Below are positions 3,001 through 6,000 of a stretch of DNA of 64,000 nucleotides, piece by piece. How positions within the stretch are numbered: position 1 is the first letter of the stretch; each line of letters starts with the position of its first letter. The position numbers are program-made. Where the stretch lies: the IMG/VR virus record IMGVR_UViG_2880378312_000006, one strand, 5' to 3'. The DNA is from a virus (taxonomy: Duplodnaviria; Heunggongvirae; Uroviricota; Caudoviricetes).

Positions 3001-6000
3001 GCGCATCTCTGCCTGAATTTCGGGCCATTTGGCACCAGGCTTACATTTATGCTTAACCCACCCGATGGCATGCAGCTTAAGCTCCGGATACATAGCGTTA
3101 ACTTCTGGCATTTTCATCAACGCTTCAACGATATGGCCGTCGAATGTTGCCATGTCTTCCTGCAACAATTCCTGTGCGCTAATCACCATATCAACAGTGA
3201 TGTTTTCACATGTGTCGAACTTAACCATGACAGCGTTCTGTACTTCAGGGGCCAGGTTGTCAAAAGTGACGTTCATCGGATCGGATTCAGTCTCGACCGG
3301 GACAAAGGAAGCAGACGCCTCATCCCAGCGGTTTTCCTGCATATATTCAGCATCCCAGGAATCGAGGGCAGGGCGGGGTATACCGGGTTTATCCTCGCAA
3401 ACAAGAAATTTATAAGCGCAGTCCTGAGCAGCCGGATAATGTTCCAGGAATTGCCAGTGAAATTTTGCGCGGGCGCGACGTTCATCACCGGCTTCAATGG
3501 CAGTGGCTACAGCGACGGCACCTTCTTCCTTTATTGCCTGTTCGTCCGGAATGGCGGCGCAAATAAAGACTTTACTCATTTTGTTTTACCTCATTACAGA
3601 TTTAAGGGTGAACAAATCCCTGCCATTGCTGGCATATAAGAATGAAATCGGATGTTTATTACGGAACTGTTTTAAAGACCTGCCGGGATTTCGTTATTAT
3701 CCTGGTGAATAACTTTATCGACCGGGTAACAGTTACCGGGAATTTTCTGTTCGGTTGCTGCAGTCACACACTCCTGCATTGTCCTGTGAACACTGACTGC
3801 AATATCAACTGGCTCTCCGGAAACAAGAAAAACTGTCAGAACAAGTGCAAATGCTGTATTCATTGCCAGCATCCTTTTTGTATCGGACGTAAACGGGCCA
3901 ACATTGAAAGAATGCATATTTTATTTAATAGCTCCCGTTCGTGTTTTCTCTTGTTAATGGCATCTTCAGTAAATACAGGGTTACTGATAGTGACACCAAT
4001 TTCAAAACAACCTTCAGACGTATTAACGTTTGGTAATAACGTTTCCATTATCGCGTCCTCAACAATGAATTTTGTGATGCGGTGCCTGGTGCCTCCAGGT
4101 GACGTTAACCAGTTAACAATTAACGCCGGATACAGAGAATCCCCCCATAACACTGTTTTTGGTTTTAACTGTTCCGCGTGCGCTCAGCCGCATTCACCGC
4201 ATCACAAAATTCACTTTAAAAAGGGCGGCAGAGCAGTCACGGAGTAAAACTGATACCGCCAAACGTCACCAGAAAATTGATAACAGAGGGCGTTGCAGCG
4301 GGGTTGTCACTTAAGCGTATGGTCAACCTGACAACCCGGTGTCCTCAACGGGGGAAGGAATAACCCCTCCATACTTACCGCCGCGCCATTTCGCGGATTG
4401 CCACAACCGGAAGCGCACGGTCGACGAAAATTTAACGACAGGCTATCTATGAACCAGCTACCTCGCCGTGCGCTTTCGCGTTATGGTCTGACTTTTCAGG
4501 GAAATATCCTTTCAGTAAACTGTCAGTGCCGTATGCTCACCCGTGTCCGGCGCACGCACTCCACCTCACCCGTGGAGAACTCCTTAATTACCAACCTTAG
4601 CTTCGTTGGTTAGCTATTAACGCGGGTATGTAATCATTCTGGCAATGCTTAATGCCGCTGCTTTTTCCAGATTGGTGATATCCTGCTCCAGAGCGGACAG
4701 ATTTTCAGCCTGCTTAGCCCTGGCTTCATTGGCCCATTTCAGATCCTGCGCTGCATTAATTTTCTGGTGCATCCACTCATAAAGTTCATCATCGGTATAG
4801 TCTGGCGCGATGATGACGGGTTCTCGTTTCTGCATGTCGGCTCCTTGTGGTTAGCGTTGCCTGCTTTTAACCACGTCAGGCGAGGTGGTATCCTCTGAGG
4901 GGTCTGTTACTCGAGAGGAAATTGGTTATGAATACAATCAAGTTTTCTTGCCCAGAATGTGGTGGCGAAGTCTTTGACACATCCTTTAAGCCGCAGGGCT
5001 CTGACAGTTTCGCGGGAGCCATCTGCAAAAATTGTGGTCACCTTGTAACTGAAGATGAGTCCTCGCAGTTCGATGACGAAATCGTTGACAATATCTTCGG
5101 TGCACTCACCAGAGACTTTCTGAAGTAAAGGCGCATACCGCTTAGTTACCGCTCTGATAACTCTTACCTGTCCTGCAATGGCGCTGATGTCAATATAAAG
5201 CGCCATTGCTGCTTCTTTGCCGATCCCGGGATGCCTTCCATTCTGATGTTTGACTTCGCCCACTGAGAAACCCTCTGTTTCCCCTTAACGCCGGGGTAGC
5301 GGAACAAAAACCTGCTGCATAGTTATTAAAGTTGAACCCTGCCGTCATGTTCATACGCCTCGGGCTGGCTACTTAACCCCTGACCACTGCCGGGTAACTC
5401 GAAGTATTTCCCTGCGTTCTGTGGGGCGGGGTGGGTTGGTATTTTTAGTTTAATAAACATTAAACTTAAGTCAAGTAAAAACTAAACCGCGGGACATAAC
5501 AAACACAACGCTTTTGATAAAGTCGTTGCGGTTGTTATGTTTCTATTGGTAGTGAAAGTTAGGGAAACTGGCGTCTTGCGTGGATCACGTTTACTACTTC
5601 AACGCTTGATGTTGTTACGCGGTATAGAATTATATAGTTAGGGTGGGCTACAATCTCACGCAAGCCAGGTACTCTGTCGCTTGGTGGGTATAAATACGGA
5701 TGTTCGGATAACGGCAGCACACAACCCCTTAATCGCTGCCATAAGCGTTCAGCCGCATCTATGTCGAAACGAGCAATATAACTAGTTATATCATCTAGGT
5801 CGGTATCTGCGCTTTCAAGCCATAACACGGGTAACATTTTACTGCTTGCTCCGTTCCTTGCGCATCTTAGCAAAGCGTTCTGCCATTCTGCGCTCAACTT
5901 CGTCATGGGGAATTGCTGGGCGCGGATCTGCAAGGCTCGTTGCTACTTTCGCACGCAGCCATTCGTTGTAACTGTTTTCTTGTTCAATGGTTTCAAATTC

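Follow-up and report, generated by a model that had tools for sequence, protein, structure and literature searches.

A pseudoknotted leader RNA domain, upstream of DicF in tandem prophages of Escherichia coli O157:H7 and shared with phage P1

In Escherichia coli K-12, the small RNA (sRNA) DicF lies within the long untranslated region between ydfC and dicB of the dicBF operon (PMC5069750), in the prophage Qin. Its 5′ end is generated by RNase E, and its 3′ end arises either through Rho-independent termination, giving 53 nt, or through RNase III, giving 72 nt, as that paper relates from earlier work (PMC5069750, citing Faubladier 1990). For the same K-12 sequence, Hfq binding and repression of ftsZ are likewise on record (PMC5069750). 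Described here are the corresponding loci on a stretch of viral DNA of 64,000 nucleotides (IMG/VR record IMGVR_UViG_2880378312_000006; the whole stretch is called the window), where DicF is preceded on its own strand by a structured RNA domain of 119 nt. The Qin module (ydfABC-dicF-dicB-ydfD) is collinear with copy A, one of the two copies found in the window; its leader is nearly identical and its DicF 100% identical. The same unannotated gap of 340 nt between ydfC and dicF is present in K-12 and holds the same 119-nt domain, which was the single match in Qin of the covariance model built in this study, R1 (143 bits). O157:H7 differs from K-12 in having several copies in different prophages, and copy B of the window has other upstream genes and a DicB that is 66% identical to that of copy A (BLASTP).

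A second close relative is found in phages P1 and P7. In the leader of the C1-controlled ban operon of P1, a region is annotated only as “dicF-like region”. It contains the same domain (91-94 bits in P1 and P7), directly after the C1-controlled promoter P1ban, the domain beginning ~25-40 nt past the ban promoter, and a terminator follows. The closing helix has a different sequence in these phages and an extra small hairpin is present. The terminator is unrelated to DicF (no Rfam DicF match), and the genes downstream are tRNAs, tciABC and ban, not dicB. Sequence conservation around dicF was reportedly noted in 1994 by Faubladier and Bouché, and again in the P1 annotation by Lobocka in 2004.

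Three further systems are comparable. In the Rac prophage of K-12, the 5′ untranslated region of kilR produces KilS, an Hfq-associated, northern-verified sRNA with a reported start site of its own (PMC8175672). Rho/NusG keeps kilR itself silent, and its expression depends on read-through (PMC5793797). Phage HK022 carries putL and putR, cis leader RNAs located past the early promoter and before the terminators of a phage without N, which require no phage protein (PMC9378689). The put RNAs would be the favoured functional analogy for the domain, from which they differ in size and fold, in the lack of any sequence or model similarity and in their presence in both early operons. Terminator-type riboswitches and attenuators likewise consist of a conserved, covariation-supported structured domain directly 5′ of an intrinsic terminator; for the domain, however, no conserved mutually exclusive pairing, no candidate ligand and no match to an Rfam class were found. 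Compared with these systems, the domain is probably best described as a phage leader RNA of solid structure, coupled to a terminator.

The window belongs to E. coli O157:H7, many finished genomes matching it at 100%, and contains two tandem lambdoid prophages, each with a Qin-type dicBF module (leader, DicF, dicB, ydfD) in its early-left operon. R1 matched exactly twice in the 64 kb, both times in the leftward operon, and an anchored sequence pattern gave two matches compared with none in 100 shuffles. The elements that make up the unit are the following.

4290..4408, minus strand: structured RNA domain, copy A (own covariance model R1, 142.3 bits, E=3e-36)
61660..61777, minus strand: structured RNA domain, copy B (R1, 140.2 bits, E=1.1e-35)
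4276..4289, minus strand: AU-rich spacer with the DicF 5′ processing site (CAA↓UUUUCUGG, the arrow marking the cut), 100% identical between copies
4223..4275, minus strand: DicF sRNA, copy A (RF00039, 76.7 bits; U-run terminator tail at 4218-4222)
61593..61645, minus strand: DicF sRNA, copy B (RF00039, 76.7 bits)

Over its final 119 nt the leader folds, on the DicF strand, into an independent structured RNA domain, a compact four-way junction with a hairpin-loop pseudoknot. Its fold comprises a closing helix P1 (GUUGUGGC/GCUGCAAC), a hairpin P2 (CCGCG/CGCGG), a 3-bp GGU/ACC helix, a variable hairpin P3 and a hairpin P4 (GGGUUGUCA/UGACAACCC). The GGU/ACC helix encloses P3 together with a single-stranded GUAUGG, and it is this strand, 5′ of P3, that pairs with the loop of P4 in the pseudoknot GUAUGG:CCAUAC. 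Junctions and loops are nearly invariant, P3 is freely variable. G-U pairs are abundant, from which it follows that the DicF strand is the functional one.

R1 and the alignment were built from 39 representatives, taken from pattern scans of viral and genome collections that yielded 136 instances, 74 of them unique; the pattern used on the genome contigs was too loose, so that most of its matches outside the Enterobacterales are due to chance. In the model-guided alignment 94.9% of the cells were paired, against 33-55% when the partners were slid, and 17 of the 36 pairs had changed on both sides (5.4±1.6 after shuffling, a value of 17 being reached in 0 of 500; 2-5 when slid). An alignment made by MAFFT only, and thus agnostic of structure, gave 95.2% paired cells (34-56% slid) and 14 pairs changed on both sides (4.9±1.4 shuffled, 0 of 500; 0-5 slid). 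On its own, RNAalifold recovered P2, the GGU/ACC helix, P3, P4 and part of the closing helix, and added a 3-bp extension to P4. Single lineages illustrate the same. P4 of Izhakiella has changed from GGGUUGUCA/UGACAACCC to GGGUAACCA/UGGUUACCC, which amounts to three compensatory pairs. The pseudoknot GUAUGG/CCAUAC has become GCAUGG/CCAUGC (UA to CG) in P1-like sequences, phage P1 among them and P7 not, and P7 shows GGC/GCC in place of GGU/ACC (UA to CG). P1-like phages have another closing helix (AGCU...AGCU with neighbouring pairs), in which one variant repairs a single mismatch.

A scan of 4150-4700 with the covariance models of Rfam 15 (cmscan) matched DicF alone, with no family on the domain at E ≤ 10, and where the domain lies in the P1 and cdtI loci nothing was matched at E ≤ 1. 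The 119-nt domain has no Rfam family and is not described in the accessible literature, including a 2025 review of phage sRNAs (PMC12197685); older descriptions may exist. A tRNA-like or tmRNA-like element was also considered and rejected, as ARAGORN predicted no gene in 4100-4700 and no conserved 3′ NCCA exists, conservation being absent 3′ of the closing helix. A small protein encoded in the leader or domain was rejected as well, given stops in all frames and non-triplet indels in P3.

Carriers of the domain are lambdoid phages and prophages from Escherichia, Shigella, Citrobacter, Trabulsiella, Erwinia, Izhakiella and Serratia, and it also occurs in the ban-operon leader of P1 and P7, with one match per prophage or phage locus. 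When the leader was compared with phage genomes by BLAST, DicF being excluded, a mosaic appeared: the ~120 nt adjoining DicF recur in cdtI, Ayreon and Stx2c phages, and matches of lower identity to the domain occur in P1, P7 and P1-like phages. The domain loci of P1 and cdtI gave no Rfam match for DicF. One phage deposited as an Actinobacillus phage, vB_Apl-pPE4, has an early region of the E. coli lambdoid type (DicA, YdaT, Kil, exonuclease VIII) and, at 3090-3270 of locus L245, a 5′-truncated domain; the terminator, together with the 3′ strand of the closing helix, is tandemly duplicated there. A host range extending to the Pasteurellaceae was rejected on these grounds, an E. coli-type lambdoid phage with a truncated domain being no evidence for it.

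What follows the domain is constant in shape and variable in sequence. The sequences directly 3′ were clustered into 15 types, 14 of which have, within ~10-50 nt, a UUU, a GC-clamped hairpin (usually GGCGG...CCGCC) and a U-run; the lone exception is a decayed Shigella locus in which the domain is truncated too. The interior of the hairpin and its 5′ tail vary widely, from DicF to short hairpins and ~70-nt inserts, and in the cdtI type the spacer measures only 12 nt. The succession of UUU, hairpin and U-run is the shape of the Hfq-binding 3′ module of enterobacterial sRNAs. DicF, among the first sRNAs described, therewith appears as only the variable tail of a larger conserved unit whose upstream half is pseudoknotted.

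The slot can also be followed in Rac. At kilS of K-12 Rac (6906-7003 of locus L251, minus strand, compared with 4223-4420 of the window, minus strand), upstream of the FtsZ-inhibitor gene kilR, the flanks of the unit are recognisable and the interior of the domain is deleted, the deletion running cleanly between the two strands of the closing helix; R1 found no match in K-12 Rac. The flanks are homologous in the 5′ GUGCGCC-UCCGGUUGU, in the terminator base GGCGG...CCGCCCUUUUU and in the downstream stem arm AAAGUGAAUUUUGUGAUGCGGUG. KilS is thus placed like DicF, ahead of a gene for an FtsZ inhibitor, and differs from the DicF unit in the missing domain interior, in the hairpin interior and the seed, and in its reported transcription start. 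Because the flanks are shared at homologous loci and the sRNA in the Rac slot is KilS, the two sRNAs look, by sequence comparison, like alleles of one slot. This would join two literatures without cross-citation, the KilS paper making no mention of DicF (PMC8175672).

Two other features were seen near the slot. Members from Erwinia, Izhakiella, Trabulsiella and Serratia (L111, L123, L106, L067, L167) carry in the slot hairpin an insert of ~40 nt with AGGAG-N8-AUGUUCUACCG, a Shine-Dalgarno sequence and a start codon inside the terminator, and the reading frame downstream is not conserved. In loci of the cdtI type (L003 at ~2690-2790; L111, L123, L152, L167) a conserved noncoding block, ACAACAGA.AAGAGCAUCACCGG.CGACGGGCUCAUAACCCAAUCCA.CCGG, stands 3′ of the terminator; in cdtI it sits within a 14-bp inverted repeat, with no Rfam match.

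The position of the domain, in P1 as in the lambdoid phages and both copies of the window, is past a repressor-controlled early promoter and before the first intrinsic terminator. In cdtI, Ayreon and an Stx2c phage, cI and a terminator are followed by the early-left promoter, a leader of ~300 nt, the domain, a terminator and the early genes. Additional terminator-like sites are located downstream of the domain, and no N-like open reading frame (ORF) was found in these three phages or in either copy of the window. In the window the domain is ~1 kb away from a promoter-like site at 5474-5447 (minus strand), past ydfC in copy A and past other ORFs in copy B. The loci of P1 and of the lambdoid phages have no protein in common, and the domain therefore most likely works with host factors.

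The proposed model begins with steps that are shown or published. After de-repression, transcription starts at the repressor-controlled early promoter, and the domain, to judge from its covariation, folds. Part of the transcripts terminate at the slot hairpin, that of DicF in this case, and are trimmed at the 5′ end by RNase E in the AU-rich spacer, as published for K-12. The others read through into dicB, and RNase III cuts the long stem, again a published step. The domain would act in cis on the transcription complex or the nascent RNA, using host factors only, and so set the proportion between termination, giving the sRNA, and read-through into the toxic and recombination genes.

A role of this kind in controlling termination and read-through at the adjacent terminator is favoured because the terminator is the only invariant neighbour of the domain, because these phages lack N, because all downstream genes depend on passing this terminator, and because termination control decides the expression of kilR at the homologous Rac locus. 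We put it forward tentatively. Several observations weigh against it. A conserved alternative pairing of terminator and antiterminator was not found across the types, and the P1, L167 and L125 types do not conserve the alternative pairing of minimum free energy seen in the DicF type. As DicF is known to terminate transcripts, any antitermination would be partial at best. The domain occurs once per phage and is lacking in the rightward operon, unlike put, and in copy A of the window it does not adjoin the promoter-like site. In Rac, without the domain, KilS is still made and read-through into kilR is possible (PMC8175672; PMC5793797). As to the structure on which the proposal builds, P2 and half of the pseudoknot are invariant in the alignment and so give no covariation signal, and sequence diversity is modest, with an effective sequence number of 1.37. 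The account as a whole, comprising the Qin-type modules, the structured domain, the terminator slot and the role in cis, is the best explanation at hand, and we consider it about evenly balanced between right and wrong. That the domain represents a new class of cis RNA, put-like and unrelated to put, which needs no phage protein to reprogram the termination decision or the host RNA polymerase, is possible and rather doubtful.

Should control of termination be confirmed, it would explain how lambdoid phages without N pass the terminator before their toxic, recombination and excision genes. On the reading as a new class, an unannotated put-like RNA in K-12 Qin, O157:H7 and P1 would gate dicB, the recombination and excision genes and the ban operon of P1, and its terminator slot would evolve interchangeable Hfq-dependent sRNAs (DicF, KilS and others). 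DicF influences virulence in enterohaemorrhagic E. coli (EHEC), and a domain that controls termination would, if true, bear on how DicF levels are set there.

The alternative that stands up best makes the domain a maturation or stability element of a pre-sRNA, which either directs RNase E to the AU-rich spacer or serves to protect or load the slot sRNA, and so releases a defined Hfq-binding sRNA. The constant vicinity of the UUU-hairpin-U-run module agrees with this, as do the DicF 5′ end 14 nt past the domain at an RN↓WUU-like site, the published dependence on RNase E (PMC5069750) and the P1 unit, a discrete transcript of ~180 nt composed of a 5′ hairpin, the domain and the terminator. KilS, however, is made in Rac without the domain (PMC8175672), the 12-nt spacer of the cdtI type leaves almost no seed, and a simple hairpin would be enough for RNase E, whereas invariant junctions and a pseudoknot point to specific recognition. 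We regard this explanation as somewhat unlikely.

Less probable still, and unlikely in our view, is an autonomous, trans-acting structured RNA (for instance a host-protein decoy, an anti-defence RNA or a ribozyme), with the terminator as its own 3′ end and DicF and KilS as later exaptations. Such an RNA could account for loops and junctions that are nearly invariant across hosts, for a peripheral P3 that varies freely, as in many ribozymes and protein-binding RNAs, and for first expression after de-repression in P1. In lambdoid phages, however, the domain is embedded in an mRNA and forms no separate gene, similarity to a ribozyme or protein-binding RNA of Rfam is lacking at E ≤ 10, and nothing points to any partner.

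A ligand-sensing riboswitch with the DicF-slot terminator as its expression platform would have the right architecture, a conserved, covarying, aptamer-like domain and then a variable intrinsic terminator, and the 5′ arm of the terminator has, in the DicF type, a possible pairing partner in CGCC together with the 3′ strand of closing helix P1. In the cdtI type, however, this pairing shrinks to ~4 bp, and the P1, L167 and L125 types show it weakly or not at all; no known class matches in Rfam, and the context of a phage early operon suggests no metabolite, which makes a riboswitch very improbable.

That the leader has no function of its own and hitchhikes with DicF through recombination between prophages would suit the mosaic early regions, and the block identity of 97-100% could reflect recent gene conversion; yet compensatory changes maintain six helices across divergent lineages and the domain persists in phages without DicF, P1 included, so that little credit can be given to it. 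Membership of the HK022 put family, or a lambda-type nut site, was rejected as next to excluded: the position between early promoter and terminators of phages without N is analogous, the short string GCGCGGCGG is common to the domain and putL and the 5′ flank UGCUCU(C/U)U of non-E. coli members resembles boxA, but R1 finds nothing in the pL/putL region of HK022 (Rfam has no put model, so its silence is uninformative on this point), 119 nt with a four-way junction and a pseudoknot differ from put's two stem-loops of ~70 nt (PMC9378689), no second copy exists in the rightward operon, and, for a nut site, there is no N gene or N-like ORF and the boxA-like motif is degenerate in the E. coli members (GCGCUUCC).

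A second noncoding block was noticed further upstream in the window, at 5278-5433 and 63006-63161 (minus strand), 97% identical between the prophages and directly 3′ of the promoter-like site (5474-5447, TTGACT-16-TAAACT). It occupies the position of nutL in lambda and putL in HK022, has homologs in only 12 phage records and could be the actual antitermination site.

The modules themselves were verified by model searches. A preliminary description of the window, made from the sequence alone, had placed an identical DicF in both prophages, each followed by dicB and a ydfD-like gene, and both statements were borne out. The covariance model RF00039 matched at 4223-4274 and 61593-61644 (minus strand), each time with 76.7 bits and E=3.6e-15 over model positions 1-52 of 52 (gathering score 48). 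Both copies are identical to one another and to K-12 dicF, and both have the terminal hairpin with U-run, dicB downstream and the setting of a prophage early operon. The coding sequences around them are:

4617..4835, minus strand: ydfC, 72 aa, final gene ahead of the copy A leader (ORF list; RefSeq ‘protein YdfC’ on identical sequence; same layout in K-12)
3860..4048, minus strand: dicB, copy A, 62 aa (Pfam PF05358, 127.4 bits, full length)
61230..61418, minus strand: dicB, copy B, divergent allele (Pfam PF05358, 115.7 bits, full length)
3672..3863, minus strand: ydfD (DUF1482), copy A (Pfam PF07358, 88 bits)
61045..61233, minus strand: ydfD-like gene (DUF1482), copy B (Pfam, 53.8 bits)

Both DicB proteins cover residues 1-62 of 62 in PF05358 (gathering score 27). 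The YdfD proteins of the two copies are 48% identical. Upstream of copy B lie a YdfA-like ORF and an ORF of 216 aa, and no ydfC.

An assembly duplication, which the preliminary description had named as a possible artefact, could be discarded. The two copies differ in sequence and in flanks and both are present in finished O157:H7 genomes. Finished genomes contain copy B and its flanks at 100% identity; strain 113 and others also match the right-hand 24.5 kb of the window, which spans the prophage junction, at 100%, and in strain 113 copy A is found exactly at the offset predicted from the window. Since the copies differ and the junction and offsets are reproduced in finished genomes, both are real, non-identical members of two tandem prophages. 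A doubled dosage of DicF on induction is plausible and agrees with the literature; the argument holds for DicF only, because the two DicB proteins, at their 66% identity, are not duplicates. The novelty implied for the two copies did not hold, as multiple dicF/dicBF copies in O157:H7 Sakai and EDL933 were already published in 2016 (PMC5069750) and, according to a review (PMC7873438, citing Melson & Kendall 2019), many EHEC strains have gone from one dicF copy to four. The two-copy DicF/dicB module is K-12 biology combined with the published EHEC expansion, and is already known.

The RefSeq records of the O157:H7 strains 113 and FRIK944 list ydfC and dicB at the locus and have no dicF noncoding RNA feature, while the K-12 record has one. 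Surveys based on annotation may miss DicF copies.

The leader outside the domain and the spacer between DicF and dicB were divided as follows.

4557..4616, minus strand: distal leader, in copy A and K-12 Qin only (unrelated to copy B, 57% identity in a forced alignment; homology ends at 4556)
4409..4556, minus strand: upstream leader block, copy A (85.8% identical between copies)
61778..61923, minus strand: upstream leader block, copy B (homology block ends at 61923)
4064..4215, minus strand: DicF-dicB spacer with a probable RNase III site, ending just 5′ of the dicB ribosome-binding site (perfect 21-bp closing stem)

Comparison of the window with itself gave a homology block of 92% identity, 3944-4556 versus 61314-61923. 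The leader had been taken as noncoding and conserved over about 330 nt; it is both, with every sense frame (3 of 3) rich in stops and a 1-nt indel between the copies, but the shared part upstream of DicF measures 281 nt. Identity between the copies is 96.6% in the structured domain (4408-4290), 100% in the spacer (4289-4276) and in DicF (4275-4223), 98.9% in the DicF-dicB spacer (4222-4049), and then 81% in the 5′ part and 54% in the 3′ part of dicB. With 97-100% in domain, spacer and DicF against 54-81% in the flanking coding sequence, selection is concluded to act on the RNA.

The reading of the leader as a processed precursor was in part upheld. It agrees with the published processing in K-12, where the annotated dicF begins 14 nt after the domain; the spacer site CAA↓UUUUC resembles an RNase E site, and the 21-bp stem (4215-4195 with 4084-4064) has a minimum free energy of -70.4 kcal/mol (z=-5.92; equalled by none of 200 shuffles), which by its sequence fits the published RNase III route. 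The leader is nevertheless more than a precursor tail, because its 3′ 119 nt are a discrete, covarying domain which is also present in phages without DicF. A long-range helix in which GUGCGCU of the 5′ flank would pair with AGCGCAC 3′ of DicF was tried and discarded, as complementary runs of 8-9 nt occur in 35-70% of shuffles and the pairing is inconsistent across types.

Several hairpins make up the mosaic of the upstream leader block (CCGGA...UCCGG, CUGAC...GUCAG, one with a GCGAAAGC tetraloop and a variable one), after which comes a conserved CGTTAAATTT motif. The block is modular and variable among prophages and is not common to cdtI-type or P1-type loci. The CGTTAAATTT motif (4440-4409, minus strand) is kept in nearly all DicF-type leaders and aligns with TGtTAAATT, the extended -10 before the reported KilS start in Rac. 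This hints at a putative internal promoter making a primary transcript of ~200 nt with domain and DicF. A consensus scan for promoters in the leader gave no match on the minus strand and did not call CGTTAAATTT.

A weak terminator-like hairpin is located between ydfD and the exonuclease gene at 3621-3634 (minus strand), within a short block (3588-3635 versus 60959-61006) that is 83% conserved between the prophages. Elsewhere, prophage A contains three tRNA genes, two further RNAs, namely a hok/sok antitoxin RNA (117 bits) and STnc100 (102 bits), and a tandem array whose period is ~162 bp, for which the coordinates 11120-11294 (plus strand), 14210-14456 (plus strand), 15233-15405 (plus strand) and 27689-28281 are listed together.

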